DNA of 64,000 nt from an uncultured Acidobacteriota bacterium (GTDB lineage Bacteria > Acidobacteriota > JAQAZP01), in the NCBI GenBank assembly GCA_963836075.1, contig CAWIIB010000001.1, forward strand, positions 1,472,001 through 1,536,000, read 5' to 3'. Both the position numbers and the translations under genes were made by a program. Of this stretch, positions 3,755 to 63,490 are shown piece after piece; position 1 is the first letter of the stretch, and every line of letters begins with the position of its first letter. Below the pieces are notes generated by a model, which worked only from the letters and a program-made list of their open reading frames with translations, was not told where the DNA came from and ran no database searches.

Positions 3755-4774
3755 ATGCGGTACATGCAAGTTGTGACGATCCTGCTGCTCGCCTTTCTCG
3801 GCTCGGAACTGGCGAACGCCGAGATCTTTATCGACGATTTCGATCGTCCCGATGAACCCCTCGGACCACCGTGGGAGCTTCTGGACCAATCTCCGCTCTA
3901 TATCGAAAACCAGTCAGTGGTCGCCCGGGAAAATGAATACGGTCTGATGCTCTACGGCGAGCAATGTCCCAGTTGTTACTGTGGCGAGGCAATCTTGCTG
4001 GCGACATTCAATTTCTCGACGAACACGGACTACGATGGGCGCTTCCAGTTCTTCATCGGCGGGGGCGAGACCGAGAGTGACTACTGGGGATTCAATGCCA
4101 AGATCGGACTCGATGAGGTCTCCCTGTACAGCATCGACGACGTGAACGGCGAGATCGAGCTGGCCACCGTGCCCTCGCCCCTCATGCACGACTTCAACCA
4201 CGCCATGGTGTTTCGGTACGATCCCGATACTCAGGAGGTCTCGCTCGTCGTGTACGGTCCCGTTTCGCCCTTGGTCAACCTGACCGTGCCCGCTTCCAGT
4301 GATCCCTTCTGCTTCCTCGCGATCGGGATCGAAAACCTGGATGCCACAGGCGACGAGGGCCGAATTCAGGTCGTGCAGTTCCAGTATTGCTGCGAGAATG
4401 CCGTCCCGACGGTGGCGGTCGAGCTGACCTGCCGGCCGGCGTCGGGCACGGTGCCCTTCTCCACCACGCTGACTGTGGGCCTGACCAACCGGTACGCCGG
4501 GCAAAGCCGCCGCATGGCCGCGCACATCGACGTCGTGCTCGCCAGCGGTACGGCCTACTCCAACTGGCGTGCGGGGTATACCAATATCGACGGCGGCGGC
4601 AGCTATACCACGTCCTGGAACCAGGCCATTCCGGCTCTCGGACCGGTGATCGGCAGCAACGTGTTCACCCTGGTCGCCGAGGACGTGACGCCGGCGCCGT
4701 ACAACCAACCGCCCTATCCGGCGTCCGGCGACACCGCCGTCCACGACTGCACCGTGGTGGCGAACGCGCCCTGA
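3755..4774 (+). CDS. Secreted beta-sandwich (lectin/ConA-like?) protein with C-terminal CTD-A
   Basis: Signal peptide MRYMQVVTILLLAFLGSELANA; DDFDR start of the mature domain; CTD-A from ~4412. Upstream ATG 3698 lies inside the IS end. Confidence 0.85.
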   Translation: MRYMQVVTILLLAFLGSELANAEIFIDDFDRPDEPLGPPWELLDQSPLYIENQSVVARENEYGLMLYGEQCPSCYCGEAILLATFNFSTNTDYDGRFQFFIGGGETESDYWGFNAKIGLDEVSLYSIDDVNGEIELATVPSPLMHDFNHAMVFRYDPDTQEVSLVVYGPVSPLVNLTVPASSDPFCFLAIGIENLDATGDEGRIQVVQFQYCCENAVPTVAVELTCRPASGTVPFSTTLTVGLTNRYAGQSRRMAAHIDVVLASGTAYSNWRAGYTNIDGGGSYTTSWNQAIPALGPVIGSNVFTLVAEDVTPAPYNQPPYPASGDTAVHDCTVVANAP

Positions 4775-5126
4775 GGCCGGTCTCCGGGACGGGCGCCGAT
4801 CCCGCAAGGGTGTGCCCGTCCAGCGAGTTCCGGGGTATGATTTCGAGAGTCCAGCGAGGGTATACCGTTGTAGCGCCCAGATACTATGTCCGCGTGTACC
4901 TGATCCACCGAGTTTTGATCGGCTCTGAATCCCGATTTCCCTCAGATCTGAAGGCCAGCCCTCCAGACTGAACGGTGAAAAGGCAGGGGAATGATCCTGG
5001 CGACAAAGGAACGACGAGCGACAACTGATTAGGGCCGTTGGTGCACGTTCTCCCGAAAATCCTTGTTCTCTTCGGCCACGGCGATGGTGTGCCCGCCGCG
5101 GCAGGACACCTCGTGCACATGGTTGT

Positions 5127-11178: not shown

Positions 11179-11486
11179 CCTGTCACAGTCCTTGATGCCT
11201 TTGCACTATGGATATAGTGAGTGGGCACGGTGGAATCCCTGCACCCCCAAAATTCGCATTGAAATCTGAACCAAACTCGATTCAATTGTGGGAAACCCCA
11301 GGCGAGTGCCTTGAGAGCATTGCCGCATTGAATCGAACAGTCTCGGGAGGTCAATCATGTTCGGACGCACAAGCAGAAAAATACTCTTGGCAGCCATACT
11401 CATGACGTTGCCGTTGGCGGTGGCCCATGGTGCCGACAACACCCTGGAGCGCATGGACGGATGGCCGTACGCCGGAGCGCGCGCCG
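11179..11486 (+). repeat. 308-bp promoter/5'-leader/signal-peptide cassette, copy 1
   Basis: Aligns over its whole length with 13662..13969; the last 34 nt (atggacggatggccgtacgccggagcgcgcgccg) are identical. Confidence 0.9.
11277..11336 (+). promoter_or_regulatory. Candidate structured 5'-UTR RNA element, copy 1
   Basis: tcgattcaat/attgaatcga 10-bp closing stem encloses two hairpins (tgggaaacccca; ggcgagtgc..gcattgcc), directly before the GGGAGG RBS. Pairing is retained in the diverged copy 2. Confidence 0.45.
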
Positions 11487-13630
11487 TGGCCGTCGATGCC
11501 GCCCGCGATCTCGTCTATCTCGGCAGCGGCGGAGCGGTTCTCGTTCTCGACATGAGCGATCCCGCCGACCCGCAACTGGTCTCCGACAGTCTGCATACCG
11601 ACGGCCATGTCCGCGACTTGCGCTACGACGGAGCGAACCAGCATCTCTGTGTGGCGGATTGGCGGACCGGTCTCGAAATCTGGGACCTCGAGGACCCGCA
11701 GAATCCGGAGCGGCTCAGTTCGGTGCCGGTGTATTACTCGGGTACGGACGCCGACTTCCCGACCGACGGCCTCGTTATCCTGGGCGAGTACCTCTATATC
11801 AACGCCAACGATGCCCGCGTCCACGCCTTTGACATCTCGGATGCCGCCAACCCTGTCGATCTCGGCGTGCAGGCCGGTCCGTTCTGGTACTACATCGAGG
11901 ACCGGGATACGGATGACGTGGCCGCCTCAGGCGGCTACCTGTACGTCGGGGGCAGCGGCGGCCTGGCCAAGTACCTGATCCACGCGGATGGAACGCTGGA
12001 GAAGGTCGGAGAAAACCTCTACTCCAACCTGGGCTGCATGGAAGCGAAGAATCCGTACGTGTATGCGGGCGTCTCCGGCGGTCTCGGGGTATTCGATGTG
12101 AGCTATTCCTACCCGGAGCTGGTGGGGTCCGCAAACGTGTCCGAGGGACTGAACGACCTGGCGCTGATTGGAAATAACGTGGTGGCCGTGAACCGCGACG
12201 GCCTACTCGTCTTCGATGTCTCCACACCGCCGTCACCACAGCAGATCGCGTCCCTGGCGCTGCCTGACGAGGGACACCGGGTGCGGTTCGACGGTGATAT
12301 CGCCTATGTCGCCTGTGAAGGAGCGGGCCTCCAGGTGGTCGATATCAGCGATCTGTACAACCCCGTCCTCATCGGCAGCTACGACACGGTGGGTTCGACG
12401 GCCGCGGTGATGGTCGCCGGAGACTATGCCTTCCTCGGCCAGAGCACTGACGGCCTGGTGATCACGGATATCAGCAATCCGAACGCCGTCCAGACCGTGG
12501 GCACGTCCGAAGGCGGCTCGGCCATTGAGTCCCTGCTGCTCGGCGACTATCTCTATGTTACCGACTATTACACCCCGGCGTTGCACGTCTTCGATGTCAG
12601 TGACGTGTCGAACCCGGTCGAGGTTGGCGCCGTCTCCGACTTCACCGCGGTCGACCTGGCGACCGACGGCGAGTTCCTCTACGCCACGCGCTTCTCGGTG
12701 GCCACGCAGCTCTACTACCTGCACGTCTTCGACCTGTCGGATCCCACCTCGCCGGTGGAGCTGAGCACGATTCCAATGTCGCCTCACATCCTCGAACTCG
12801 ATTACGCGAATGATCATCTGTTCGCCATCGAGTTCTACGACACGGGCCTGCACATCATCAACGTTTCCGATCCGTACAATCCATTCGAGGACGCCTTCTA
12901 TCCCGTTGACTGGGGCGAGGATGTCTGCACCCAGGGGAATTACGCCTTCGTGACCTCATTCCACCAGGGCCTGCTCGTGCTGGACATCAGCGAGCCGGCC
13001 AGCCCGACCCTTGCCGGAAACTTCTACGAGGTATTCCAGTTCGGCGATGTGGCCGTCACCGGCGACCTGGCCTTCATCACCACGGGGACCACCGGAGAGC
13101 AGTACCTGCGGCTCTACGATGTGAGCGATCTGGGCAACATCAACGAACTCGACCGGATGCTCCTGCCCGGCGACGCCTGGGACCTGACGGCTCAAGACGG
13201 CTTTGCCTACGTTGCCGACGGGTTTGCCGGCCTCCAGGTCATCAGCGCCGGAGCGGATGTCCCGACCATCGGCGCGGAGTTCAGCTGTGTGCCCTCATCC
13301 GGCACGGTGCCCTTCAGCACCCAGATGACCGTGACCCTGGCCAACCTGTACACCGGTGAGCGCCGCCGGATCGCCGGCCGGATCGACATCACTCTGGCCG
13401 GCGGTTACTCGTTCCCCAGCTGGCGCACGGGGTATGCCAACGTGGCCGCCGGCGGTGGATACACCACGGCCTGGGTGACCGACATCCCGGCAATCGGCTC
13501 GGTGGTCGGGGACAACACGTTCCAGCTCTTTGTCGAAGACGTCACCCCTTCGCCTTTCAATCAGCCGCCTTACCCGCCGGCAGGCGACACCGCAAACGCT
13601 GCTTGCACGGTGACCGGCGTAGCACCGTGA
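11357..13630 (+). CDS. Secreted LVIVD-repeat beta-propeller protein with C-terminal CTD-A
   Basis: Signal peptide; many GL.V.D(I/V)S.P..P repeats; CTD-A from ~13268. Confidence 0.92.
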   Translation: MFGRTSRKILLAAILMTLPLAVAHGADNTLERMDGWPYAGARAVAVDAARDLVYLGSGGAVLVLDMSDPADPQLVSDSLHTDGHVRDLRYDGANQHLCVADWRTGLEIWDLEDPQNPERLSSVPVYYSGTDADFPTDGLVILGEYLYINANDARVHAFDISDAANPVDLGVQAGPFWYYIEDRDTDDVAASGGYLYVGGSGGLAKYLIHADGTLEKVGENLYSNLGCMEAKNPYVYAGVSGGLGVFDVSYSYPELVGSANVSEGLNDLALIGNNVVAVNRDGLLVFDVSTPPSPQQIASLALPDEGHRVRFDGDIAYVACEGAGLQVVDISDLYNPVLIGSYDTVGSTAAVMVAGDYAFLGQSTDGLVITDISNPNAVQTVGTSEGGSAIESLLLGDYLYVTDYYTPALHVFDVSDVSNPVEVGAVSDFTAVDLATDGEFLYATRFSVATQLYYLHVFDLSDPTSPVELSTIPMSPHILELDYANDHLFAIEFYDTGLHIINVSDPYNPFEDAFYPVDWGEDVCTQGNYAFVTSFHQGLLVLDISEPASPTLAGNFYEVFQFGDVAVTGDLAFITTGTTGEQYLRLYDVSDLGNINELDRMLLPGDAWDLTAQDGFAYVADGFAGLQVISAGADVPTIGAEFSCVPSSGTVPFSTQMTVTLANLYTGERRRIAGRIDITLAGGYSFPSWRTGYANVAAGGGYTTAWVTDIPAIGSVVGDNTFQLFVEDVTPSPFNQPPYPPAGDTANAACTVTGVAP

Positions 13631-13661: not shown

Positions 13662-13969
13662 CCTGTCACAGTCTTTGAAGCGTTTGCATATAAGGATATA
13701 GTGAGTGGGCACGGGAAATCCCCGCACACCCCAAATCCGCATTGAAATCTGAACCACACTCCGGTCAATTATGGGAAACCCCAGGCGGGTGCCGTGAGGG
13801 CAGCGCCGAAATGACTCGGACAGTCTCGGGAGGTCAACTATGTTCGGAGGCACTAGCAAGAAATTATTTTTGGTAACTTTACTCATGACGTTGTCGTTGG
13901 CGATGGCCCAGGGTGACGAGATCACCCTGGATCGAATGGACGGATGGCCGTACGCCGGAGCGCGCGCCG
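13662..13969 (+). repeat. 308-bp promoter/5'-leader/signal-peptide cassette, copy 2
   Basis: Diverged copy of 11179..11486; similarity stops abruptly after the codons for MDGWPYAGARA. Confidence 0.9.
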
Positions 13970-16249
13970 GCCAGACCATCTTCGGTGAACCGCAGTACTG
14001 GGGCTTCGCGGGCGGCTTCGCCACCGTCCCCGGCGACTTCGACAACGACGGTGACGCCGACCTCTTCACCGTCCATCCGCCCGTCTACGACAGCTTCGGC
14101 CAGCTCATCTACCCGGGCGACTACACGATCAATTTCAACACCGACGGCCTGGGCTCTTTCAGCTCCCAGACACTCATCGACTCGCAGGGTGCCTACAGAG
14201 TCCTGGCCGAAGACCTTAACGACGACAACGCCCTCGACATCATCGACGGCGACCTCGGCGTCATGCTCGGCAACGGCGACGGAACCTTCGGCCCGATCAT
14301 CCAGTACAGCAACGGCAGCGGCCACGGCCCGGCCCTCCGCGTCGCCTTCGGCGACATGGACGGTGACGATGACACCGATATCATCGTCCCCAACGACGGC
14401 CCGGTCCTGCTCAATTACGGTGACGGCACCTTCTACACCAACTTCGTCTCGAGCGATGTCGCCGCCGGCACTGCTGTCGGCGTCGGCGATATCAACGAGG
14501 ACGGCCATCTCGACGTCGCCACCATCCGCAGCGCCTACGACGTCGTCAACATCCAGCTCGGCCTCGGAGATGGTTTCGGCAACCCGGGTGAGTCCTACAC
14601 CGTCCCCATCGGCGGGGAATACCCGATCGATATGGCCCTCACCGATATGAATGGCGATGACCACCTCGACCTCGTAACCCTGAACGACGACACCGACGAT
14701 GTCACCGTCATCCTCGGCAACGGCGACGGCACGTTCGGCGCCCCGGCGACCTACGACCCGCACGAGCCGGCGTATTACGTTGTGGAAGTATTCAAGGTCG
14801 CGGACGTCAGCGGCGATGGCGCCCCGGATGTGATGGTCACCAGTACCGGTCTACGGCGACGCAGAGAGTCATCAGGAGTCCGGGCTGTTGCTCAACGACG
14901 GCGCCGGCGGACTCGCGCTCGTTCAGACGATCGAGCGCTTCGGTCAGCTCGGCGAGAACATCGTCGCCGCCGATCTCAACGACGACGGCAATACCGATCT
15001 CGCCAACGCATCCCACCTGCTGTTCAATCAGCTTCCGGCAACGACCGGCATGGGCGTGCAGCCGCTCGACGACTTCTTCTCCATCGGGCCGTATGGCGGT
15101 CCGTTCGACCCGCCGAGCAAGACCTACACGCTGGCTAACAACGAGGCGTTCCCGATCGAATACAGCGCCGGCGCGGACGCCGACTGGATCACCATCGACA
15201 ACACGGGCGGGATGATCCCGGCCGGCGAAAGCATCGACGTCACCGTCAGCATCAACGGGAACGCGGAGTCGCTGCCGCACGGCGACTACTCGGCTCTGGT
15301 GTCGCTCGTCAACCTGACCAATCATCACGGCGACCGCACGCGGGGCGTCACGCTGCAGGTCGGCATCCCCCAGGTGGTCTACTCGTTCCCCCTGGATACC
15401 GATCCCGGCTGGCAGACCGAGGGCGACTGGGCCTTCGGCCAGCCCACCGGCCAGGGCGGCGCGCACGGCTCGCCCGATCCGACCAGCGGATACACCGGAC
15501 CGAACGTGTACGGCTACAACCTGAACGGCGACTACTCGGGCTTCCTGTGGGATACGAATCTCACCACCGGCGCCATCGACTGCTCGAACCTGAGCCACGT
15601 GACTTTGCGCTTCCGGCGCTGGCTCGGGGTGCGGGATCAACCCGATAATGCCTACGTCCGCCTGAGCACCGACGGCGACTTCTTCCTCTACGTGTGGTTC
15701 AACGAGAATGAGGTCTACGATAACGACTGGCAACTCGTGGAGTACGACATCTCCGGCTTCGCCGACGGCGAGTCGACCGTGTATCTCCAGTGGACCCTGG
15801 GTCCGACCTATAGCGGCGGCGCCTGCGGATGGAACATCGACGACGTCGAAATCCTGGCTGTCGAGAATGGCGCATCGCCGTCCACGGTAGATGCCGGCAT
15901 GAGTTGCTCCCCATCCTCCGGCACCCTGCCATTTTCCGAGCACTTCGGGGCGACGTTGACCAACCAGTACAAGAATTTCAATCGTGTCATCAACGGCCGA
16001 ATCAGTGTGGCCCTTGCCGGCGGCCAGTTCTACTCCAACTGGAAATCGGGGCAGGTGACCCTGGGCGGAGGCGAATCCTACACCAGGTCGTTCAACCAGG
16101 TTCTGCCGAATCTCGGTGCGCTCATCGGCACAAACACCTTCACCCTGGTCGCGGAAGACACGACGCCCGCGCCGTACAATCAGCCGCCCTACCCGCCCGC
16201 TGGTGATACAGCCACAGCCACTTGTACCGTGACGGGGGTTGCGCCATAG
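13840..16249 (+). CDS. Secreted FG-GAP repeat + BACON-like Ig + MAM/ConA-like module + CTD-A protein (frameshift ~14848)
   Basis: ORFs 13840..15138 and 14888..16249 join. FG-GAP repeats continue in the second frame (VYGDAESHQESGLLLNDGAGG), followed by ADWITID..GGMIPAGES, WQTEGDWAFGQPTG..WNIDDV and CTD-A. Confidence 0.85.
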
Positions 16250-17943: not shown

Positions 17944-18990
17944 CTACGGAAGGAGTTCCCACCGGGCGCCCCGCCCACGTCCGCTGAGTCGAAGCTTACC
18001 CTGCTTCTTCAACTCGGCCAGGACCTTCTTGATCAGTTGGGGACTCACCATGGGAAGTTGGGCTGCAAGGTCGCCGAGAGTAAACAGTTCCACCTGGGCA
18101 AGAACAGCCTTTTTGATGAGATCACTCTTGGCCGGACGGGCTTCCACTGTTCCAACCTGCCGCTCAAACTCCCTGTAGGCTCGGTGCAGGACACCTAAAA
18201 AGTAGTTCCACCAGGGGACAATGCTGTTCTGGCCTTCATGCCAACCGATGGAACACTCTTCGAGCACGCGGTAATACTCGTCCTTGCTGTCCTCCACCAG
18301 ACGCTCCAGACTGATATAACGTGCCACCTCATAACCATCTGTCTGAAGCAGCAGTGTCGTTGCGAGGCGGGAGACGCGTCCATTCCCGTCAAGGAACGGA
18401 TGGATGCACAAGAGGTCGAGAACGAAAGTGCCGATAGCCAGCAAGGGCGGGACCCGCTGGTTTTCTTTAGTATTGCGGTAATTCCTGCAGAGCGACTCCA
18501 CGGTTCTTGGGGTGGCGCTGGCAGAAGTGGGAATGAACCGAACCCTCCTCTCGCCATTGGGCAGGATTTCGATGATCTCATTGTCCCGCTGTTTCCACTC
18601 CCCGGCATCACCCGAAAGCCCTCCCTGTGCCATGGCATGAAACCGCTGGATGACCGCCGGTGTGATGGGCACTCTTCTCTTACGTGAAAAGATCCAGTCC
18701 AGAACCTTGCGATACCCCGCAAGTTCTTCTTCCGAGCGATCCCTGGGCTTGACCCCACCCTGGACAACAGGTCGAAGCCTGTGCGACGGAATCGTCACCC
18801 CCTCGATGCGGTTCGATGATTCGACACTCTGGATAATTGCCTGCTCGCGGAGCGCGTCCAGCACTTCCGGTTTCTGTCTAATCCAAAGATCCTGTTTCCC
18901 CCGTGCCTCCATGCAGGAGGCGAGAAGCCACCCCGTGCCGACCGGGATCGACATCTTCATGAGTTTGGCCGGATCAAGAGATAACACCAT
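17944..18990 (-). CDS. Fic family protein with C-terminal winged-HTH
   Basis: Canonical HPFLDGNGRVSR motif; SSNRIEG inhibitory-type motif; C-terminal ..L..L...G.L...GRGRGARW. Confidence 0.93.
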   Translation of the reverse strand: MVLSLDPAKLMKMSIPVGTGWLLASCMEARGKQDLWIRQKPEVLDALREQAIIQSVESSNRIEGVTIPSHRLRPVVQGGVKPRDRSEEELAGYRKVLDWIFSRKRRVPITPAVIQRFHAMAQGGLSGDAGEWKQRDNEIIEILPNGERRVRFIPTSASATPRTVESLCRNYRNTKENQRVPPLLAIGTFVLDLLCIHPFLDGNGRVSRLATTLLLQTDGYEVARYISLERLVEDSKDEYYRVLEECSIGWHEGQNSIVPWWNYFLGVLHRAYREFERQVGTVEARPAKSDLIKKAVLAQVELFTLGDLAAQLPMVSPQLIKKVLAELKKQGKLRLSGRGRGARWELLP

Positions 18991-19642
18991 TCCTCTCCCC
19001 TGCTATCAGTGGCCTAATAATAGCCTATTACCAAATTAATAGCCAATTCACTACGGGCGGCCTCTTGAAGGCTTGTGGCGAGAGACGTTCGTAATCAGCG
19101 GCATTCGGGGAGCCATTTTTCTGCACTACAATACCTCCCGTCCCTGAAAAAGCAGACCTGAAAGGCTGCTCCAGCAAATTCGGGTGAGCACACACGATCC
19201 CATTGCATCACATCCTGCCTGAGATTTCTGGCCAGCTCGAACATCTAACGGGCCTCCTGATCCGAGCGGCGGCGGAAAGGAGGGCGGAATTGTAAGCGAT
19301 GTTGAATTACCAGTCCGGGCTGAGGCCTGTTAGTGGCCGAGGACATCACTCCATCGCCATACAACCAGCCGCCCTACCCTCCGGCGGGTGACACTGCGAC
19401 TGCCTCATGCACGGTGACGGGGATCGCGCCTTGATGGAACACCCGGCATCGGCTCGGGACACAAGCTCCGCCGTCAAGTGGACATCTGTAAAGTAGAGAT
19501 TCTTGCCTGCCACCCATCCCACCACCACAGCACACATTGCCTAAGTTGGCTACATGCAATAGCATGTCAATATCGTAAACAGCAATCCGCAAAACGGATA
19601 AATGAAACACCGCTTCACGTCATCTCACGGAAGGAGTCAACC

Positions 19643-20710
19643 ATGGGATTCATGGATTTCATCAAGGGTGAACTGCTCGAGATCATCGAGTGGACGGACG
19701 ACTCGCGCGACATCCTGGCTTACCGGTTTCCGGACGAAGACAAGGCGATCAAGAACGGCGCCCAATTGATCGTCCGGGAATCTCAGATCGCCCAGTTCGT
19801 CTATCTGGGCGAGTTCGGCGACACCTTCGGACCCGGCAAGCACAGCCTGACCACCGACAACATCCCGATCCTGACCCGTCTGAAATCCTGGAAGTTCGGC
19901 TTCGAGTCGCCGTTCAAGGCTGACGTCTACTATCTCAACACGCGACTGTTCACCGGCAACAAGTGGGGCACGTCAAACCCGATCATGATGCGCGACAATG
20001 ATTTCGGTATCGTCCGCGCGCGAGCCTTCGGCACCTACGATTTCCGTATCGTCGACCCCAAGATCTTCCTCAAGGAGGTCGCCGGCTCCGATCACAATTT
20101 CCGGCTGGACGAATTCTCGGAGACGATGCGCTCGCGCATCGTGAGTGTCTTCAGCGATGCCCTCGCGACGTCGAACATCCCGGTGCTCGACGCCGCCACG
20201 AAGTACACGGAACTCGGCGAAGCGCTGCTGCCGCTGATCAACCCCGCGATGATCGCGAAGTACGGCCTCGAGATCACCAGCTTCATCCTCGAGAACATCT
20301 CCGTGCCCCCCGAGGTCGAGGAGGCGATCGACAAGCGCTCGGGCATGGCCGCGGTGGGAGACCTCAACGACTACGTCAAGTACCAGTTGGGACAGGGAAT
20401 GGAATCGGGCGGCGGCGGTTCCGGCGGGATGGCCACCGAGATGGCGGTGGGGCTCGCCATCGCCCAGCAGATCATGCAGCAACAGGGGGCCGGTCTGACC
20501 CCCGGCACGCCGGCCGGAGCTTCCGCGGCCCCGGCGATGGGCGGATCGTTGCTTCCAGACCTGATGTCCGTCGAACAGGTGGCCCAGGCGTTGGGCGTCT
20601 CGACGGACGACGTGTCGAGTATCATCGAGTCGGGCGAACTCGCGGCCAAAAAGATCGGATCGTCGGTGCGGATCAAGCGCTCGGCCCTCGAAGCCTATCT
20701 CGCCGACTGA
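19643..20710 (+). CDS. SPFH/band-7 (YdjI-like) protein with C-terminal excisionase-type HTH
   Basis: IKNGAQLIVRESQ, FGPGKH.L.TDNIP, KWGT.NP, RAFGTY; tail LMSVEQVAQALGVS...I.SGEL.AKKIG..VRI. Confidence 0.9.
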   Translation: MGFMDFIKGELLEIIEWTDDSRDILAYRFPDEDKAIKNGAQLIVRESQIAQFVYLGEFGDTFGPGKHSLTTDNIPILTRLKSWKFGFESPFKADVYYLNTRLFTGNKWGTSNPIMMRDNDFGIVRARAFGTYDFRIVDPKIFLKEVAGSDHNFRLDEFSETMRSRIVSVFSDALATSNIPVLDAATKYTELGEALLPLINPAMIAKYGLEITSFILENISVPPEVEEAIDKRSGMAAVGDLNDYVKYQLGQGMESGGGGSGGMATEMAVGLAIAQQIMQQQGAGLTPGTPAGASAAPAMGGSLLPDLMSVEQVAQALGVSTDDVSSIIESGELAAKKIGSSVRIKRSALEAYLAD

Positions 20711-20726: not shown

Positions 20727-21821
20727 ATGACCGACCAGCAGACTGCGATCGAACGGCACTCCTGCCCCGCCTGTGGGGCGCGAGCGGAGTGGAACCCCGC
20801 ACGGCAGGCGCTCGTCTGCGCGTATTGCGGCACCGAATCGCCGGCAGAGCTGGATCGGACAACGGGCGGGATTCGCGAGATCGACCTCGTCCAGACGCTC
20901 CGGGAATTGCCCGAAGAATTGCGGGGCTGGTCCACCGACACTCGAAGCGTCAAGTGCCGCAGTTGTCACGCGGTCTCGGTATTCGAACCGGGCCGGGTGG
21001 GCCAGAACTGCGAATTCTGCGGCTCACCCGAACTGGTCGACTACGACGAGATCAAATCACCGATCCGCCCACAGAGTCTTTTGCCGTTCCGCATCGACGA
21101 AGTGCGGGTGCGCGAACGCGTCCGCAAGTGGTTCGCCGGCAAGTGGCTCGCCCCCTCGAAGTTCAGCAGGAAGGCCTTCGTCGACACCATCCGCGGGCTC
21201 TACATTCCCTACTGGACCTTCGACTCACAGGTGCACTGTTCGTGGACGGCGGATTCAGGAACCTATTATTACACCACCGAGCGCTACACCGGGAAAGATG
21301 GGAAGCAGAGGACACGGCAGGTCAGACACGTGAGGTGGCGTCCGGCCGCGGGAGAGCTCGAACACTTCTTCGACGACGAACCGGTCCCGGGCACGCAAGG
21401 CCTGCCCCCGGACGTGTTGCGGCGGATCGGCCCCTTTCCCACGACGGATCTCGTTCCCTACGACACCGCATTTCTTTCCGGATTCGTGGTCGAGCACTAC
21501 AAGGTCGTGTTGATCGACGCCGCTCGGAAAGCGCGGGAATCCTTCGCGGAAAAACTGCGTGGCATGTGCGGCGCGCGTGTTCCGGGAGACACATACCGGA
21601 ATCTCGTCATTCATCCGGAGTACTCCGGAGAGACATTCAAGCACATCCTCGTACCGGTCTGGATTCTGAACTACGGGTTCCGCCGCAAGACTTACCAGCT
21701 GTTGATCAACGGCTACACCGGAACGGTCGACGGCAAGTATCCCAGGAGCGGTTGGAAGCTCTTTTCCCTCGCGTTGCTTGCAGTGATCATCGTTGCCGTC
21801 ATCGTCTGGATCGCGGCTTGA
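20727..21821 (+). CDS. Double zinc-ribbon membrane-anchored protein (YdjG-like)
   Basis: CPACGA..CAYCG and CRSC..CEFCG; YIPYWTFD; ILVPVW; NGYTG.V.G..P; C-terminal TM helix. Confidence 0.88.
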   Translation: MTDQQTAIERHSCPACGARAEWNPARQALVCAYCGTESPAELDRTTGGIREIDLVQTLRELPEELRGWSTDTRSVKCRSCHAVSVFEPGRVGQNCEFCGSPELVDYDEIKSPIRPQSLLPFRIDEVRVRERVRKWFAGKWLAPSKFSRKAFVDTIRGLYIPYWTFDSQVHCSWTADSGTYYYTTERYTGKDGKQRTRQVRHVRWRPAAGELEHFFDDEPVPGTQGLPPDVLRRIGPFPTTDLVPYDTAFLSGFVVEHYKVVLIDAARKARESFAEKLRGMCGARVPGDTYRNLVIHPEYSGETFKHILVPVWILNYGFRRKTYQLLINGYTGTVDGKYPRSGWKLFSLALLAVIIVAVIVWIAA

Positions 21822-21998
21822 CCGGGTCGAAGAAACACCTGGTCTCCGGCGGATTTTCGCTGCGGGGAGCCGAGTCAATGCCGGAGAGCGTACATCGGGA
21901 ACGCTCTCCTTTTCGCGTGCGGCTGCCATATCTCCGATACCGGAGGACACCGAAAAGTTACATGCAAAGTCGGGGTTTTGGAAGGATCGGCCAGGGAA

Positions 21999-23492: not shown

Positions 23493-23518
23493 GTCGACAC
23501 TCCAGTGGTTCTCGAGTT

Positions 23519-41651: not shown

Positions 41652-42067
41652 CTAATTTAGTAGAGTATCGAGATGTCAAACCCGCAATGCCGGAGGGCTG
41701 GTACGGTTCCCACGTCAGCATGCAGGCGATGGGCGTGCGGTTCCATTTCTTTTGCCTTTTTTCCAATTTCAGTCATCTTTGAAAAGAGATTTCACCATCA
41801 GGTGTGACCGGCCGGTGATGCGTTCATCCCTGAATTCGACGCGCTGGTCACGCCATCGCTACGCCTGGTCACATTCACCAGTCCTGTTGACATTACTCGA
41901 TGAAACCAATCCACATTACGATGCGTTCAGGCTTGTTAGCGACGAGGTGCAGGACAGTACATCAGCCGGCAATGCCCTGTTCCCGCGTTGCAACAATTTA
42001 CAGGGCTGCGGCAATTTCTGCTGCGGTTCACACGGGTTTCGCATCGCAACAGATTGGAGCACCATCC

Positions 42068-51845: not shown

Positions 51846-51962
51846 TCCGGAAGCCGACGACTGAAAGTGGCGGCGAGATGGTCTGGTCATCTGTTACAAT
51901 CGGAGCAGTTACCGTACGGAAAGCACTGGTTCCTCACAATTAAACTTTGCAGGAGAGACACC

Positions 51963-54641
51963 ATGAGACGGCACCGTTCCATCCTGACAAGTCTGATCGT
52001 TCTGCTTGCTCTGGTCATTGCGGCCCAGGGCCTGTGGGCCGCGGCTCCGGCCCAACCCGGTGCCGAATTCTTCACCAACGTCACCGACGATGTGGGCCTC
52101 ACCGGCATCATCGGCTACCGCCTCAACATCGCCGATCTCAACGGTGACGGCTACCCCGATATTTTCGCCCACCTGCCGCTGACCCATGCCACGGGGGACG
52201 TCCTGAACAAGGAGTTCATCTATCTCAACATGCCGGGCAGCGAGCCGGGCAGCCGGGAGTTCGTCGACTTCACCGAGGAGTCGGGAATCAGGGCCAACCG
52301 CCAGGGAACCACCGACGGGCGGCACACCGACTCGGGCATCTTCGCCGACGTGGACAACGACGGAGACGTGGATATCTTCACCCTGGTCTATCTCCATGAC
52401 AACTACACCCTGAACGAGGGCACCAACGAGCTGATGCTCAACGACGGCGACGCCCACTTCACCCTGGCGCCCAACTCGCCCTTCCACACCGAGCAGATCT
52501 GGAATACCGCCGGCGCGGTCTTTCTCGACTACAACAACGACTCCAACATCGACCTGTTCATCGGCAACTGGTACTATGTCAACAACCTGTCCAAGGACCA
52601 CCTCTACATGGGTCACGGGGACGGCAGTTTCACCAGGGTCTCGGTGGAAGCGGGCTTCGACGAAACATTCACCGCCATTTACGGCGTGGCCGCCTGCGAC
52701 TGGAACAACGACGGCTATACCGACATCTTCGCCCCGAGCTACAGCCACACCAGGCCCGCGGCACGGTCCCGCCACTGGCGCAACAACGGTGACGGCACCT
52801 TCACCGAGGTGCAGGAAGAGACTAACTACACCGAGTACACGGGGTACCAGTCGACCCGGGCCTCCTTCGGCTGCATGCCCGCCGACTTCGACAACGACGG
52901 CGATATCGACCTCTTCGAGATCCTGACCCACGGGCGGGGCGACGGCACCAGCGGCGTGCACTCCACGGTGCTGGTCAACGAGGACGATGTGTTCACCTGG
53001 GATTTCGCCGCGGTGGACGGCCGGAGCGACGAGGACCCGCTGATCACCCACCACGGTGATCACTACGCCAGCTGGTTCGACATCGAAAATGACGGCCTCT
53101 ATGACTTCGTCCTCACCGAATCGGCCTACGACAACAACCGCATCTATATCTTCAAGCAGGCGCCGGACCACACCTTCTCGCCGGTGACGGTGCAATCAGG
53201 GATCAACCAGATCAACCTCGACGACCTGCCGGTGCACAACGCCATGGGCTTCGACTACGACCGCGACGGCGACGAGGACCTGCTGGTGGGTATCGGCAAC
53301 GCCACCGACTCCATGCAGCTCTTCAGAAACGACGTGGGTCTCCAGAACAACTGGCTCAACATCACCCTGGAGGGCAAGGGCGAACCGGGGTTCAGCAACC
53401 GCAGCGCCATCGGCGCCCGGGTCAGCGTCACCGCCGGCGGCACCACCTGGACCCGCGAAGTCTATGCCGGCAACGGCCACCACGGGCCCCAGGTGCCTTT
53501 CTGCCTCTCCTTCGGGCTGGGCCAGGCCACCGTGGTGGACCGGGTGGAGATCCGCTGGCCCAACGCCAGCCTCTCCCGGACCCTGCTCACCGCCGTGCCG
53601 GTCAACTCCTTCATCACCGTTGCCGAGTGGGAAGACGAACCGACGATCATCGCCGGCCCCGGTCCGGCACAGGCCAACCCGCCCGAGGTGCGGGTCTTCA
53701 GCACCGGCAACACCGAGTCCCCGTTCTTCACCTTCACCGCCTATGGCGCCAGCCAGTACGGGGTCAATGTCTCCACCGGCCAGCTGGATGGCCAGGGCTA
53801 TCCGGAGATCGTCACCGGCGCCGGTCCCGGAGCCGTGTTCGGGCCCCACGTCCGCGGCTGGTCCATCGCCGGCGTGGCCATCCCGGGGGTGAACTTCCTG
53901 GCCTACGGCACGAACAAGTACGGGGTCAACGTGGCCCTGGGCGACCTGGACAACGACGGGTTCGACGAGATCATCACCGGCGCCGGGCCCGGAGCCGTGT
54001 TCGGACCCCACGTGCGCGGCTGGAACCACGACGGCACACCGGGGGTGGAACCCATTCCCGGGATCAGCTACTTCGCCTACGGCACACCCAAGTGGGGGGT
54101 CAACGTCACCTCCGGCGATATCGACGGCGACGGGTTCGACGAGATCGTCACCGGCGCCGGGCCCGGAGCGGTCTACGGCCCGCACGTCCGCGGCTGGAAC
54201 GTTGACGGCGGTGCGGCAGCGGCCATACCGGCGGTGAGCTTCTTCGCCTACGGTACGCTGAAGTTCGGGGTCAATGTCAGCTGCGGCGACGTGGACGGCG
54301 ACGGCATGGACGAGATCATCACCGGCGCCGGGCCGGGCGCGGTCTTCGGGCCCCACGTGCGGGGCTGGAACTATGACGGCGCCGCTCTGACCACCCTGCC
54401 CGGCTTCAGCTTCTTTGCCTGGGAGCCGTCCGAGGCCCGCTTCGGGGCCAATGTCGCCGCCGGGGCCGACCTGGACGAGGACGGCCGCAACGAGCTGGTG
54501 GTGGGCGCCGGCCCGGATCCCGACTTCGGCGCCATGATCAAGGTCTACACCTACAACGGGTCGGCGGTATCCCAGTGGCTCACGCTGGACGCCTTCCCCG
54601 GCCTGACCCACGGGGCCACGGTGGCGGCGGGGAGCATGTAA
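51963..54641 (+). CDS. Secreted CRTAC1/ASPIC-UnbV FG-GAP protein with CTD-B
   Basis: Signal; D.DNDGD.D repeats; NWL.I.L.G...NRSAIGARV...FGLG......EIRWP; CTD-B from ~53643. Confidence 0.92.
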   Translation: MRRHRSILTSLIVLLALVIAAQGLWAAAPAQPGAEFFTNVTDDVGLTGIIGYRLNIADLNGDGYPDIFAHLPLTHATGDVLNKEFIYLNMPGSEPGSREFVDFTEESGIRANRQGTTDGRHTDSGIFADVDNDGDVDIFTLVYLHDNYTLNEGTNELMLNDGDAHFTLAPNSPFHTEQIWNTAGAVFLDYNNDSNIDLFIGNWYYVNNLSKDHLYMGHGDGSFTRVSVEAGFDETFTAIYGVAACDWNNDGYTDIFAPSYSHTRPAARSRHWRNNGDGTFTEVQEETNYTEYTGYQSTRASFGCMPADFDNDGDIDLFEILTHGRGDGTSGVHSTVLVNEDDVFTWDFAAVDGRSDEDPLITHHGDHYASWFDIENDGLYDFVLTESAYDNNRIYIFKQAPDHTFSPVTVQSGINQINLDDLPVHNAMGFDYDRDGDEDLLVGIGNATDSMQLFRNDVGLQNNWLNITLEGKGEPGFSNRSAIGARVSVTAGGTTWTREVYAGNGHHGPQVPFCLSFGLGQATVVDRVEIRWPNASLSRTLLTAVPVNSFITVAEWEDEPTIIAGPGPAQANPPEVRVFSTGNTESPFFTFTAYGASQYGVNVSTGQLDGQGYPEIVTGAGPGAVFGPHVRGWSIAGVAIPGVNFLAYGTNKYGVNVALGDLDNDGFDEIITGAGPGAVFGPHVRGWNHDGTPGVEPIPGISYFAYGTPKWGVNVTSGDIDGDGFDEIVTGAGPGAVYGPHVRGWNVDGGAAAAIPAVSFFAYGTLKFGVNVSCGDVDGDGMDEIITGAGPGAVFGPHVRGWNYDGAALTTLPGFSFFAWEPSEARFGANVAAGADLDEDGRNELVVGAGPDPDFGAMIKVYTYNGSAVSQWLTLDAFPGLTHGATVAAGSM

Positions 54642-55875: not shown

Positions 55876-55895
55876 GATAGTGCGGAGCAGCAACT

Positions 55896-58800
55896 TCAGG
55901 GGGCGATCCCGATCACCGTACACTGGTCGAAGTTGGTGCTGCCCGAAGGGGCGTGCGGCGGCTGGTTGTACGGCGCCGGGGTCACATCCCGGGACATGAA
56001 GCTGAACAGGTTGTTGCCGATGACGTAGCCCAGGGCCGGGATGGTCTGGTTCCACTGGGTGACGGCGCTCTCCAGCGGCTGGATGGTCTGGTAGCCGCGC
56101 CGCCAGTTGGCGATGTGCTTGCCGCTGGCCAGGTCCACGTCCACCTGGGTGGCCACCCGCCGGAGACTGCTGCAGGTGTTGCTGACGGTGTATTTCATGT
56201 GCGAGGCAAAGGGAACCGTGCCCGCCGAAGGAATACAGCTCAGGTCATCCACGATGGTGGGGACAATCGACTTCTTGCCCCAGATCTCAATGTCGTCGAT
56301 GTTCCAACCACAGTATGTATTGGCACTGTCGGTGGGGCCCATGGTCCAGCGGACAGCCACGTCAGAGCGGCCGTCGGCCACCGCCGAGATGTCGATGTCC
56401 ATCGATACCCAGCTGCTGTCAACGATTTCAGTCTGGTTCTCCCACACCACTACCCAGGGGCCGCCTTCAGCGCTGACCCGGATGCAGGCATGGTCGTGGC
56501 CCGGGTCCTCCACCCCCAGCCAGCGCCGGAATTTCAGCCGGGTGTCGGTGCTGTCCGAACAGTCGAAGAGAGTGGTGGTCAGATGCTCCGCCAGCAGGTC
56601 GTTGGGATAGTCGCCGGCGAGGTTGTAGCCGTAAGCGTTGGTTCCCGTCCAGCCACTGACCGGGTCGGGTCCCCCGTTCTCGCCCCCGGCGCCCAGCGGC
56701 TGGCCCAGAGACCAGCCGCCCTCGGTGGTCCAGCCCGGGTTCCAGCCCAGCAGCCACTGCTGCTGCCGCACCGGATCACTGATCGGCGCCGCGATGTTGA
56801 CAATGCCCTTGGTGCTGTTGCTCAGCCCCGAGGGCGGGAAGGGCGGCTGGTTGAACGGTGCTGGAGTAACGTCGGTGACGATTACGTCGTAGGTGTTGAC
56901 TCCGATGCCGCTCCCGTCGGAATAGTCGTAGAGCTGGGTGTGGGTCTCCTTCTGGTCCGCACCGAGCACCATCGTCCCCTGCCAGTGTCCGGGCAGTTCG
57001 GTACCGTCGGCCAGGGTGACATCAACGTTGTAGGCCAGTGTCCGTTCCACCGGTGCGTAGCAGCCCGCGGTGAGCGAGCAGACGATTTCCACCGGCGCGG
57101 TGCCCGAGGCGGGAGTGCAGGTGAGGTCCACCCAGGGCAGCGCCGGGATGGAATCCACACCGAACCCGGTGAACGAATCACCCTCGCCGCTGAGGAAGTT
57201 GGCATACAACTGGTCGGTCCAGCTCTGGGTGGCCGTGATCTCGGTCTCCATGGCAATCCGCTCACCGCCGAGCTTCCAGTTGGTGAAACTGGAGTAGTCG
57301 ATGCCGTCATAGGTGACGGTCCATTCCAGGTGGTCATTAGACGAGTGAGTCACCCCGCCGCCGCCGGTGGCGTACACCGGGAAATCATCCCACCCGGTTC
57401 TGCCAGGCCACCACTTGATGATGGCGCCTTCGGTCTGGTCGAAGGTGCCGCTCCAGGTCTGTGGTTCACCGTAGTTTCCGGCCGGATCTCTCCGCCGGAC
57501 CGAGATCTCCCAGCTCTTGCCGGCCGCACCGGTGAGGAAGAGGATTCCCGGTTCGTTGGCCAGGCCCAGGGGCCCGTCACCGAACACGTTTCCACCCAGG
57601 CGGCAGGGCACGGTGAGGCTGAACGGCAGCTCAGCCAGGTTGAGCGAAACAGGATCCTGGCCATGGTAGGTGATGTCAGCATCGAGGAAGTAGTTTCTCC
57701 CGTCTTCGTACAGCCCGTGCTTCCAGTTCGGTGGGCTGTAATCGCCGGGTACGAAATTGTCGTCGTTCAGCACGTAGTCGACAAAATCCTTGAATATCGT
57801 ATTGGCCACCGACCGCGCTTCCGACGTGTGCCCGCCCTGCAGGGTGATGCATGAGGTGTGTTCGAGGCCGTTGTCGCTGAGCCAGTTGTCCATGTCGATG
57901 AAGTGGTTCAGCGGGAAGAAGCAGTCGTGTGAGCTGTAGGAGAGGAAGAGGTATTTCCCCTGCAGGGTTTGAAGGTTGTCCGAATGGTCCGGGCTCAACT
58001 GGTTGGCCTTCTGGACCATCGGCAGGTCTTCGGTTGCCGGGCCAAAGGCCGGGACCAGCAGGTCGGGGTTCATGCCGGCCGGCGGGTCGTAATCGTAGCG
58101 GAAGGCGCCGGGGCCCACATTGACGTTGTAGGTGCTGGCAAAGGCCGGATAGGTGGCCACCGGTATCTCACTCAACTTGCCCAGCGCCAGGGGGGAGATC
58201 ATGGCGAACACGCCGATGACCGAGTAGTCATACGTCTGACAGGCGGTGTTCTGAGCCAGGGTCAACGCGCTGAAACCGGCACGGGACCCGCCAAAGGCGA
58301 TGATCCGGTCCTTGTCGCACCCGTAGGTGTTGTGCAGCATCTGGATCAGCAGGTCCATCGCCTTCCGGGCCTGGTCGTTCACCCCCATGCAGTGGTATCC
58401 GCCGTTGTTCCAGCGAACATACACGACACCGCGGTTGTCCTCGTCAAAGAGGTAGGCATCCTTGACCCTGGTCAGGTTGTAGGGCAGTTCGTTGAACACC
58501 CCGCCATTGAGCCCCTTGCTGCCGTAGCCGGCCCCGCTGATCACCACCGGGTAGCGGTTTGCCGCATCGATGGAGAAGTGGGGCGGGAAGGTGATGGTGA
58601 ACATCGACTGTGTCGGGGTCTGCTCCACACCCTCGAGCATCACGTGGTTGACCACGATCTGGATCCGGTTGATGCCCGTCTGCAGATCCTCGATCCGGTT
58701 GAGGACATTCACCCCGTCGATCTCCGGCATGCAGTAGTCCTCCCAGGAGCGGAGCATCTCCTCCAGGGTACTGCTCCGCACGCCCAGGTCATCGGTGTAC

Positions 58801-59024
58801 ATCCAGTCGTAGTCGTTGTAGGCCGGGATGTAGTCCACCCGGCCCGGGTCGGGATCCAACCCGTATCCGGGATTGAAATACCCTTCCCCGGTCTCGGGAT
58901 TGGAGATGGTCCAGTTCGTGTTGATCACGAATGGATCGTCAGGGTCGTCGGCACTGGCGGTGAACGTGCATACCGCAAGGGCAAGCAGAATGAAACCGGC
59001 CACGGCCAAACTTCTCATCGTCAT
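55896..59024 (-). CDS. Large secreted alpha/beta-hydrolase-like protein + internal CTD-A + MAM/ConA-like module + terminal CTD-A
   Basis: Signal; YPVVI, DRIIAFGGSRAG elbow, SSHD, GGH; two DVTPAP(F/Y)NQPP modules. Confidence 0.88.
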   Translation of the reverse strand: MTMRSLAVAGFILLALAVCTFTASADDPDDPFVINTNWTISNPETGEGYFNPGYGLDPDPGRVDYIPAYNDYDWMYTDDLGVRSSTLEEMLRSWEDYCMPEIDGVNVLNRIEDLQTGINRIQIVVNHVMLEGVEQTPTQSMFTITFPPHFSIDAANRYPVVISGAGYGSKGLNGGVFNELPYNLTRVKDAYLFDEDNRGVVYVRWNNGGYHCMGVNDQARKAMDLLIQMLHNTYGCDKDRIIAFGGSRAGFSALTLAQNTACQTYDYSVIGVFAMISPLALGKLSEIPVATYPAFASTYNVNVGPGAFRYDYDPPAGMNPDLLVPAFGPATEDLPMVQKANQLSPDHSDNLQTLQGKYLFLSYSSHDCFFPLNHFIDMDNWLSDNGLEHTSCITLQGGHTSEARSVANTIFKDFVDYVLNDDNFVPGDYSPPNWKHGLYEDGRNYFLDADITYHGQDPVSLNLAELPFSLTVPCRLGGNVFGDGPLGLANEPGILFLTGAAGKSWEISVRRRDPAGNYGEPQTWSGTFDQTEGAIIKWWPGRTGWDDFPVYATGGGGVTHSSNDHLEWTVTYDGIDYSSFTNWKLGGERIAMETEITATQSWTDQLYANFLSGEGDSFTGFGVDSIPALPWVDLTCTPASGTAPVEIVCSLTAGCYAPVERTLAYNVDVTLADGTELPGHWQGTMVLGADQKETHTQLYDYSDGSGIGVNTYDVIVTDVTPAPFNQPPFPPSGLSNSTKGIVNIAAPISDPVRQQQWLLGWNPGWTTEGGWSLGQPLGAGGENGGPDPVSGWTGTNAYGYNLAGDYPNDLLAEHLTTTLFDCSDSTDTRLKFRRWLGVEDPGHDHACIRVSAEGGPWVVVWENQTEIVDSSWVSMDIDISAVADGRSDVAVRWTMGPTDSANTYCGWNIDDIEIWGKKSIVPTIVDDLSCIPSAGTVPFASHMKYTVSNTCSSLRRVATQVDVDLASGKHIANWRRGYQTIQPLESAVTQWNQTIPALGYVIGNNLFSFMSRDVTPAPYNQPPHAPSGSTNFDQCTVIGIAP

Positions 59025-59118
59025 CCCCCTTTGTTCTTTGTCCCCCTGAAACCGCACAGACACCCCGGCGGTTCACGGGACCTGCCTGAAAAATGTGGTC
59101 CACCGCTCGTCAGGAATA

Positions 59119-61413: not shown

Positions 61414-61606
61414 ATTGACCACGCCGGATACCGCCCGGGGGTGTCCGGAACCATCAACCACTGATCGGTGAAAGGGGGGTGATGCCATGCCCGTTATGCA
61501 ATGGCAGAGGATGAACGGGAAACGATTCAAGTCCGACCTTTCATGCTCAAGAGACCCGCATCCTCACTGAATGTATGTCGTCAGACAACTTCCGGAGGAG
61601 ACCGAG

Positions 61607-63490
61607 ATGAGTAGAAAACTGCTGATTGCCTGTGCGCTGCTGGCGGTTCTCTTCAGCGCCGCAGCCCAGGCCGAAACGGTGGTGCCGGGTGGTGAGGTGT
61701 ACGGCACATGGGATGAGGTCGGCTCACCCTATCTGATCAAGGGCGAGATCACCGTCCCCGAATGTCAGACCCTGACCATCGACCCCGGTGTGGTGGTGGA
61801 CGTTCGCGGGCACTTCAAGATGATCGTTCACGGCACACTGGAAGCCGTGGGTACGGAGAGGCACAGGATCCTGTTCACCGCCGCCGACACCGTGGAGGGC
61901 TGGCACGGGATCCGATTCGTCGACACCATGGAGACCAGCCACCTCCAGTGGTGCATCATCGAACACGGACGGGCCAAGGGAATTGATATCAATGATCCGG
62001 ACGGTTGGGGTGGGGGAATCCTCTGCAGCGGCTCCAGCCCGGCCATCACCGACTGCATCGTCAGGAACTGTTCAGCCATCGGCTCCGGCGGCGGAATTTT
62101 CTTCCATCAATCCAAGTCGGAGATCACCCGCTGCAATTTCACCGGAAACTACGCCTCGATTCTGGGCGGGGGTGTGGCTGTCTACTTATCCGACATCGCG
62201 ATTCGGCAAAGCGGTATCACCGACAACAGCAGCGAAATGTGGGGGGGGCGGTCTTCACCCAGGATTCTTTCACCGGGATCGAAGACTGCACCATCCTCCG
62301 GAATCAGGCCGACCGGTTGGGTGGAGGGATCAGCGCCTACAACTGGAACCAATACTTTGAACGACAGTTGACCGTACGGGGCTGTACCATCACCGGAAAC
62401 AGTTCGGGGATGTGGGGCGGCGGGATCTCCGGTGACACCATCACCATGGAGATCGAGGGCAACGTCATATCGGGGAACCGGGCTCCGGGCAAGTATGGCG
62501 GTGGAATCTACGTCAACAACTGCGCCGGAACCGTTGAAAACAACATCATCTCGAGGAACACGGCGCTTGCCGGCGGCGGCATCGGCATGGCCACCAACTC
62601 TGTTGTCGATCTGATCAACAACCGTATCACCGGCAACTCGGCCGTGGAGGATGGCGGGGGTATCCGGTGGACCATCGGAAGCACTTCAGTGCTCAGAAAC
62701 ATGACCATTGCCGACAACACGGCGCCAAACGGGGCAGGGATCTTCGCTTGCAACAGATGCGACGTCCGTGCGATAAACACGATTTTCTGGGGCAATAAAG
62801 CGACGACCGGTGAGGCGGCATGGGTCGGGACGTCTTCAACCCTGCGCATCAGCTACTCCGATGTGCAACCGGGAAACTCCTCAGTTCTACGTGGCCCTGG
62901 GCGGCACGCTGGAATGGGGCGAGGGCATGATTTCCGAGGATCCGCTTTTCCGCGATCCGGACAACGGTGACTTCCACCTCTGCCAGGACCCCTGCCAGCC
63001 GGGGGTGAAAAATCCCTGTGTCGACGCGGGTCACCCGGTTAGCCCGATGATCCCCGGATCCACCCGCAGCGACTGCTGCTGCGACGTGGGGCGGGTGGAC
63101 ATGGGCTACCACTCCCCGGTCCCGAATTCAGTGGCCACCGACATCCGGATCGACCCCGAATCGGGTGTGCTCCCCTTCACCACCCGGGTCAGCGCCACCA
63201 TGAGCAATGTCCTGGGTGTGGAACGGACCCTGGCCGGCCGGATCGCCGTCACCCTGGCCAACGGGATGTGCTACCACAACCTCTGCCCGGGAGTTGTCGA
63301 ACTGGGCCCGCATGAGAGCCACTCGCTCATCTGGAACCAGGACCTGCCGGCCCAGGAGAGATACCTGGGGACCAACATCTTCGAACTCTTTGCCGTGGAT
63401 GTCACCCCGGCGCCGTTCAACCAGTCACCCTATCCCATGTCCGGCAATACCGACAAGGACACGGCCACCGTTACCGGCAGCAGCCGGTAG
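61607..63490 (+). CDS. Secreted right-handed parallel beta-helix protein with CTD-A (frameshifts ~62245 and ~62880)
   Basis: Three ORFs join: GTW...SPY.I.G..., GGGI/N.A repeats, ISYSDVQ, I..DPLF....GDFHL....PCVDAG, DMGYH, then CTD-A from ~63131. Confidence 0.85.

Follow-up and report, generated by a model that had tools for sequence, protein, structure and literature searches.

An uncultured member of the Acidobacteriota carries one and the same C-terminal domain, here called CTD-A, on a large set of exported proteins whose remaining parts are unrelated. The domain was noticed in a stretch of 64,000 nucleotides (the window, G000:C1:1472001-1536000), which belongs to an assembly of 6.23 Mb in 10 contigs (G000; 94.7% complete, 4.6% contamination). 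Followed through the genome, its relatives and the sequence databases, CTD-A can be read as a lineage-specific sorting or anchoring handle, recognized by a shared reader, at the C-terminal end of about 190 enzymes and adhesins that each genome exports by Sec; we give this reading a probability of about 0.5. It combines a terminal position, export signals, a wide range of cargoes, a fixed junction between cargo and domain, replacement by other tails in relatives, and a scarcity of other tails in the genome, all of which are expected of a sorting or anchoring tag and not of a spacer.

The original prediction held that nine signal-peptide proteins of the window end in one common module, and a six-frame motif scan, translation of the open reading frames (ORFs) and an alignment of the copies bear this out. 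There are ten full copies, nine terminal and one internal; their alignment spans 117 columns, and identity to the first copy is 35-62%. The quoted motifs (C.P.SGT.PF, NWR.G, DVTP.P[YF]NQPP, and CTVTG.AP) are all found in the copies, and residues P7, G10, P13, R31, G44, G53, G79, N81, D89, T91, P92, P94, N96, Q97, and P99 are invariant in all ten. Matches within the organism's own genome score E 1.7e-39 to 4e-54, and chance resemblance is therefore out. The tails end in ...CTVTGxAP without a hydrophobic stretch, and direct inspection of the sequences agrees with the earlier description of a tail that lacks a hydrophobic helix and a basic tail as well as LPxTG and PEP motifs. With the upstream pieces of split genes included, the N-terminus of each of the nine gene products resembles a signal peptide. 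The copies and their genes, in window positions, are these:

3698-4774, plus strand: exported protein with no Pfam cargo family, likely start near 3755 (MRYMQVV...); CTD-A at 4418-4771.
11357-13630, plus strand: LVIVD beta-propeller protein with signal peptide (Pfam LVIVD, E 4e-54); CTD-A at 13274-13627.
13840-16249, plus strand: signal-peptide-bearing FG-GAP protein, interrupted by a frameshift near 14845-14890 (ORFs 13840-15138 and 14888-16249); CTD-A at 15893-16246.
19330-19434, plus strand: CTD-A remnant, its last ~35 residues (EDITPSPYNQPPYPPAGDT...CTVTGIAP), with no cargo and an in-frame stop just upstream; the original prediction does not set it apart as a remnant.
30926-32269, minus strand: signal-peptide-bearing FG-GAP protein; CTD-A, in a divergent copy with the end ...CSLWGIAAAR, at 30929-31282.
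32641-34941, plus strand: exported protein with weak alpha/beta-hydrolase signals under the Pfam cut-offs; CTD-A at 34585-34938.
40587-41574, minus strand: exported protein whose gene a frameshift divides into ORFs 40831-41574 and 40587-41174; CTD-A at 40590-40940.
41900-43621, plus strand: exported protein with a weak BNR_4 match (E 0.006, below cut-off); CTD-A at 43265-43618.
55896-59063, minus strand: exported protein of 1055 residues with no Pfam family; CTD-A terminal at 55899-56249, with a further copy inside the protein at about 56787-57146, in which the last Cys is absent.
61571-63490, plus strand: beta-helix protein with signal peptide and at least two frameshifts (ORFs 61571-62371, 62005-62970, and 62810-63490); CTD-A at 63137-63487, without either Cys.

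Pfam assigns the cargoes in part as they had been named: the LVIVD, FG-GAP (two genes), and beta-helix labels stand, the lipase-like and BNR-like labels are matched only below curated cut-offs, and the lectin-like, MAM-like, and large-hydrolase labels find no Pfam match in the window. Frameshifts split three of the nine genes (13840-16249, 40587-41574 on the minus strand, and 61571-63490), and genome-wide the reading frame of some fragmentary copies shifts within CTD-A itself; the frameshifts in tagged genes are either assembly errors or gene decay.

The pattern of the window extends to the whole genome. A hidden Markov model built from the ten window copies, searched against all stop-to-stop ORFs of at least 60 residues, gives 221 domain hits in 220 ORFs. 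Full-length hits number 189, and in 187 of these a stop codon lies no more than 10 residues away; the remaining 32 hits are fragments, mostly parts of frameshifted genes. The terminal residue is Pro in 163 of the 187 copies, and 111 of them end in AP. A signal-peptide-like start is present in 131 of 168 tagged ORFs of at least 300 residues vs. 1454 of 5798 untagged controls, as judged by our own heuristic on stop-to-stop ORFs, many of the untagged control ORFs being spurious. Only three of the 131 have a lipobox-like motif. Tagged genes are clustered, with 30% of neighbour gaps under 5 kb (random placement, mean 14% and maximum 21% in 200 placements), and density peaks at 12 copies per 64 kb. 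Other tails are rare in the genome: there are eight dockerin hits, one sub-threshold FlgD_ig hit and one PEP-CTERM-like tail. Tagged proteins are lysine-poor (0.9%) and acidic, with a median isoelectric point of about 4.05 for the cargo and 4.65 for the tag.

The cargo families seen in 69 representatives that look complete include Beta_helix (12), FG-GAP (5), subtilase S8 (4), and peptidase C25 (2), as well as papain C1, M28, PA14, PKD, and MAM. Only a few residues link cargo and tag, and there is no conserved cleavage-type linker.

CTD-A is lineage-specific, as had been proposed, and both the genome comparisons and the searches of cluster representatives support this. Among 41 genomes examined (the organism's own and 40 relatives), the domain occurs in 3/3 genomes of the same genus and was not found in the 38 other genomes of the phylum, which belong to 31 other families; in this sample the class consists of those same three genomes. 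The two relatives G001 and G002 give 138 and 112 matches, respectively, among 150 scored candidates each. When one genome per species was searched for the motif D[VT]TP[AS]P[YF]NQ (185,579 species), 122 stretches were confirmed, and all 78 loci among the matches listed fall in two metagenome-assembled genomes, of which one bears the label Acidobacteriota. Searched with the profile, 1.84 billion cluster representatives returned 501 proteins at E<=0.001 and 347 at E<=1e-30; in the best 150 representatives CTD-A is terminal in 146, forms a tandem pair in 8 and is internal in 3.

In the sequence searches CTD-A matches no named family, in line with the original prediction. None of the ten copies matches any Pfam model at E<=10 (Por_Secre_tail, FlgD_ig, dockerin, and CARDB included), NCBIfam returns a single noise hit, and the best match in a PDB sequence search with the CTD-A profile has E 0.35. 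Aligned by hhalign with 16 FlgD_ig and type IX secretion system (T9SS) tails, which were drawn from homologues of one CTD-A cargo, the first window copy (A1) reaches a probability of 0.8%. CARDB (PF07705) has no match in G000, with seven of 14 control genomes positive, and a protein atlas offers CARDB leads only, at scores of 0.86-0.88, under the line of 0.9. Three proteins are named among the 16 CTD-A cluster members listed, all as 'hypothetical protein', and full-text literature searches, at the level of their listings, found no description of the domain. Both a strong match to a characterised family and an occurrence unlinked to C-termini and signal peptides were tested for, and neither was seen.

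The structure predicted by AlphaFold2 from the ten-row alignment is an eight-strand immunoglobulin (Ig)-like sandwich of 118 residues with high model scores (pLDDT 96, pTM 0.84), which supports the Ig-like fold named at the outset. Foldseek gives TM 0.68-0.72 to the FnIII domain of RbmA, and VIA-align ranks RbmA FnIII (4be5, Z 11.7) before the AlkC Ig domain (10.9), CARDB (3idu, 9.8), and PKD (4xed, 9.0); macroglobulin and transglutaminase domains are also among the matches, and all of these are generic Ig-like folds. The T9SS C-terminal domain (CTD) is not among the fold matches listed, a listing that leaves fold likeness possible. We take the opening, A.L.C.PSSGTLPF, to resemble the first strand of bacterial PKD domains. 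Within the model, residues 90-105, which hold the invariant stretch DVTPxP[YF]NQPPYPPxGDT, form a long ordered loop. Because the strands of the sandwich alternate in direction, this loop, the P-x-S-G turn and the loop at 24-31 should lie at one end of the domain and both termini at the other, so that the conserved elements would sit at the tip distal to both termini, a placement taken from strand order rather than from coordinates. A homodimer prediction with two A1 copies scored 0.00, which counts neither for nor against self-association.

Two cysteines probably close the domain as a disulfide, as had been suggested for its first and last Cys. Across 168 copies Cys is present at profile position 5 in 137 and at position 110 in 122; 115 copies have both, 24 have neither and 29 have a single one (odds ratio 17.9, p 9e-11), figures that overstate independence because copies within one genome are kin. 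A Cys-rich variant of CTD-A without the proline loop (...FDVNIDC.TP...CNG...CNCDL...DSC..TT.C) ends three proteins of G000. As a bridge to distant relatives it was tried and rejected, with only four database proteins matched, all of them orthologues. Its carriers are:

G000:C1:1909419-1911143, plus strand: carrier of the Cys-rich variant.
Contig C1, 587828-589276 in reverse-strand coordinates, minus strand: carrier of the Cys-rich variant.
Contig C9, 1122467-1124644 in reverse-strand coordinates (G000:C9:2392206-2394383; locus L095), minus strand: carrier of the Cys-rich variant.

The position of CTD-A is equivalent to that of known tails. With the cargo part of the LVIVD protein alone as query, 120 homologues were listed, of which 4 carry CTD-A and about 54, as counted from the table, carry FlgD_ig and/or Por_Secre_tail; SLH is found on one and CW_binding_2 on one. 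In 6 of the 19 closest relatives of this cargo the junction ...GLQI[IV]RAG is identical and is followed by a dockerin-like tail, and the closest orthologues outside the lineage (57-76% identity) have the same junction, followed by either a dockerin-like tail or a short FADDFESGD...W tail. LVIVD-cargo orthologues elsewhere (P0154-P0163) have a conserved short tail, [ML][IF][FS][AT]DDFE[ST]GD...W[SL]..., at the CTD-A junction. Within the genus, the cargo of the orthologue P0152 shares 83% identity with that of the LVIVD window protein, and its tag shares 53% with the tag of that protein and 82% with the one carried by the next gene downstream; the tag being closer to that of a neighbouring gene, tags have been exchanged between genes. 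The LVIVD protein and the next FG-GAP gene are also near-identical over their first ~45 residues (11357-11490 and 13840-13970, plus strand), which cover the signal peptide and ...L[ED]RMDGWPYAGARA, with cargoes that differ; thus neighbours share N-terminal ends as well as tags.

CTD-A would work like the T9SS CTD or the dockerin, by analogy, and appears to belong to neither family. The type A CTD of the T9SS (PF18962/TIGR04183; FlgD_ig, PF13860) also forms an Ig-like sandwich and also stands at the very end of proteins exported by Sec; in a single genome it marks tens to hundreds of unrelated cargoes, C25, S8, beta-helix, and propeller proteins among them, and it occupies the same slot in distant homologues of the LVIVD cargo. 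The two have no sequence or profile similarity, and CTD-A, unlike the T9SS CTD, combines a pair of Cys with a proline-rich loop that is long and invariant and with a Pro as its last residue. As described for RgpB, the T9SS CTD has seven strands and acts as an outer-membrane export signal (PMC4804311), whereas eight strands are predicted in the 117 residues of CTD-A. Reviews place the T9SS in Bacteroidetes and the Fibrobacteres-Chlorobi-Bacteroidetes (FCB) superphylum; CTD-A occurs in Acidobacteriota.

Dockerin (PF00404) resembles CTD-A as a C-terminal module common to many secreted enzymes, for which it serves as a retained, non-covalent tether, and a dockerin-like tail stands at the exact CTD-A junction in the closest LVIVD-cargo orthologues elsewhere. 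The dockerin fold is a duplicated calcium-binding helix pair; CTD-A differs in its all-beta prediction and in having no match to the Pfam model, and the eight dockerin hits of G000 lie elsewhere. The Ig-like E-set domains (RbmA FnIII, CARDB PF07705, PKD, and macroglobulin MG) share the predicted fold without a sequence match and, unlike CTD-A, are not confined to C-termini. LPXTG, PEP-CTERM/exosortase, GlyGly-CTERM, and MYXO-CTERM tails follow the same pattern of one tail on many unrelated exported proteins, but these signals are short, about 25-35 residues in which a motif is followed by a transmembrane helix and a basic tail, whereas CTD-A is a soluble folded domain without these elements. 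The cargo of the type XI secretion system (Slam) has a C-terminal beta-barrel domain. For the short sorting signals, with their many-to-one pattern, a lineage-specific reader is expected in the accounts of PMC1569441, PMC3237569, and PMC11980579.

If CTD-A is such a handle, the following sequence of events can be proposed. The N-terminal type-I signal peptide would carry the protein over the inner membrane, and CTD-A would fold in the periplasm, displaying at its cargo-distal end the invariant proline-rich loop (D-V-T-P-x-P-Y/F-N-Q-P-P-Y-P..G-D-T) together with the P-x-S-G turn. One common partner would then read the handle, and unrelated cargoes would be brought to, and kept at, the same site on or around the cell surface. 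By analogy we lean weakly towards a tag that stays on the mature protein as a tether (the logic of dockerin and SLH) as more likely than one that is cut after passage of the outer membrane (the logic of the T9SS), because of the probable disulfide, the Pro cap, the pairing of copies in tandem and the dockerin-like tails that the nearest orthologues carry.

Several results weigh against a sorting or anchoring handle with a shared reader, most of them from the search for that reader or for secretion machinery, which used 14 control genomes with no T9SS-positive genome among them. PorV (PF19572) has no match in G000, its control being positive in Bacteroides thetaiotaomicron; SprA_N (PF14349) has no candidates in G000, yet none of the 14 controls is positive either; Slam (PF04575, DUF560/SlipAM) has no match in G000 and is silent in all 14 controls; and GldK is represented only by FGE-type sub-threshold hits (best 89.8 bits vs. 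a cut-off of 350). These searches detected none of the T9SS core parts in G000. No scaffold protein with repeated partner modules, as in dockerin/cohesin systems, was found among 287 ORFs of at least 900 residues: none has three or more internal repeats of at least 60 residues, a test that diverged repeats would escape, and there is therefore no obvious scaffoldin. Clustering the families of genes neighbouring tagged genes gave large, unannotated single-linkage clusters and no reader candidate. Furthermore, 37 of the 168 tagged ORFs failed the signal-peptide heuristic, the fold, an Ig sandwich of generic kind, has no match that points to a specific function, and the function of the tag is read only from the genes of an uncultured organism, whose kin copies lead the counts and the Fisher test to overstate independence. 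The proposal of a recognition domain for a secretion or display system thus stands in part: the Ig-like fold, lineage specificity and C-terminal position on exported proteins agree with it, but no reader, translocon, peptidase or scaffold was found.

A PorU-like C25 peptidase was considered as the reader and rejected. The best such protein (C1:1027244-1030054, 937 residues, with the C25 domain at its end) matches NF033707 with E 1.4e-59 and 201.8 bits vs. a cut-off of 420, over model positions 106-733 only, the C-terminal third of the PorU model being absent from the match. It lies beside genes for a radical-SAM/SPASM enzyme, an HprK-like kinase and PFOR, and PorV is not among its neighbours. 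A search at E<=1e-40 found it in G001 and not in G002, and full-length relatives of 37-43% identity occur in tag-less Acidobacteriota families; it therefore does not track the tag, which adds to the results against a handle with a shared reader. This peptidase, along with the shared logic of a Sec signal, an Ig-like C-terminal domain and many cargoes, would suit CTD-A as a very divergent true T9SS CTD with a cryptic T9SS. That CTD-A is such a domain is very improbable: the ten copies have no Pfam match, the hhalign probability is 0.8%, PorV was not found with a working control, GldK lies below its cut-off and the PorU-like protein falls short in bits and does not co-vary with the tag; the searches for SprA_N and Por_Secre_tail also returned nothing in G000, with controls that were likewise silent.

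The remaining alternatives differ in whether the domain is discarded, attached or passive. It is somewhat unlikely that CTD-A is the export signal of an undescribed outer-membrane route, in which a lineage-specific translocon or attachment complex reads the folded domain in the periplasm, followed by its removal or covalent attachment in the manner of T9SS CTDs but with unrelated parts. Its strictly C-terminal position with constant spacing to the stop would fit, and so would cargoes that are type-I signal-peptide non-lipoproteins and still need outer-membrane passage, T9SS-type tails in the same slot of distant cargo homologues, per-genome numbers that resemble T9SS cargo sets, and the export role described for the T9SS CTD, also an Ig-like sandwich (PMC4804311). 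However, the tag co-varies with no candidate for a translocon or a processing peptidase, a conserved linker of cleavage type is absent in front of the domain, and the tandem and internal copies, the probable disulfide and the Pro cap suit a persisting rather than a discarded domain.

A passive or adhesive module without a dedicated reader, either a stabilising Ig-like spacer or a binder of environmental polymers or particles, would be expected in varied positions and copy numbers, yet of 189 full copies 187 occur singly at the C-terminus. Conservation in the model is strongest in a surface loop, beyond the core positions, and relatives hold sorting or anchoring modules in the same slot; most cargoes are proteases, beta-helix or FG-GAP proteins and not glycoside hydrolases, a range that speaks against a classical carbohydrate-binding module. 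Spread of such a module by tandem duplication and recombination would accord with the clustering of tagged genes (30% vs. 14% of gaps under 5 kb, up to 12 copies per 64 kb) and the exchange of tags between neighbours, and its passivity with the empty reader search, the generic Ig, FnIII, CARDB or PKD-like fold (Z 11.7 to the matrix protein RbmA and 10-11 to unrelated Ig domains) and the weak CARDB leads below 0.9. Taken with its expected variety of position, we consider this explanation unlikely, and the sorting or anchoring handle remains the reading that we prefer.

Two secretin genes are present in G000, and a channel of the type II secretion system or pilus type is therefore available. Elsewhere in the genome, beyond the window, a pair of paralogous ORFs, each about 2180 residues long, holds in one frame a TamB/AsmA-like region, three to five POTRA domains and an Omp85 barrel, and both look like TamB-TamA fusions:

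G000:C9:2267510-2274076, plus strand (L090): TamB-TamA-fusion-like ORF, ending in Phe like outer-membrane barrels.
G000:C9:1011951-1018484, plus strand (L091): TamB-TamA-fusion-like ORF, with the same Phe end.

Within the window, a second C-terminal module of about 330 residues occurs in three proteins without CTD-A (446-2917, 37568-39625, and 51867-54641, all on the plus strand). This module is of FG-GAP type, is 66-76% identical among the three and ends in ...VKVY.YDG.Q.T.WF.LEA..GL..G..VAAG; one of the proteins also has a PAD_porph domain. The CTD-A remnant at 19330-19434 has on one side a Fic/DOC gene (17944-18990, minus strand) and on the other a gene with SPFH/Band-7 and HTH_17 domains (19478-20710, plus strand), downstream of which are four ORFs without a Pfam family (20727-24401); the region around the remnant could be an inserted element that deleted the cargo.

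Shared C-terminal tails have led before, in the literature on these systems, to sorting machines: sortase, exosortase, rhombosortase, the T9SS, and myxosortase. In CTD-A a domain of no known family marks about one gene per 33 kb in a genome without a detected T9SS and nearly without other sorting tails, and one cargo swaps tails at a fixed junction among CTD-A, dockerin-like and T9SS-type modules. The domain provides a ready list of the surface and secreted proteome of the lineage, its profile can be used for phylogenetic profiling toward the reader, and as a compact, stable domain it is a possible display handle. With CTD-A abundant, the T9SS not detected and other tails scarce, the cell must sort or hold its surface enzymes otherwise. 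It is possible, if on the doubtful side, that CTD-A is the address label of an undescribed pathway of outer-membrane export or surface attachment restricted to a class-level lineage of Acidobacteriota, one whose parts would be unrelated to the T9SS and which would serve about 190 cargoes per cell.

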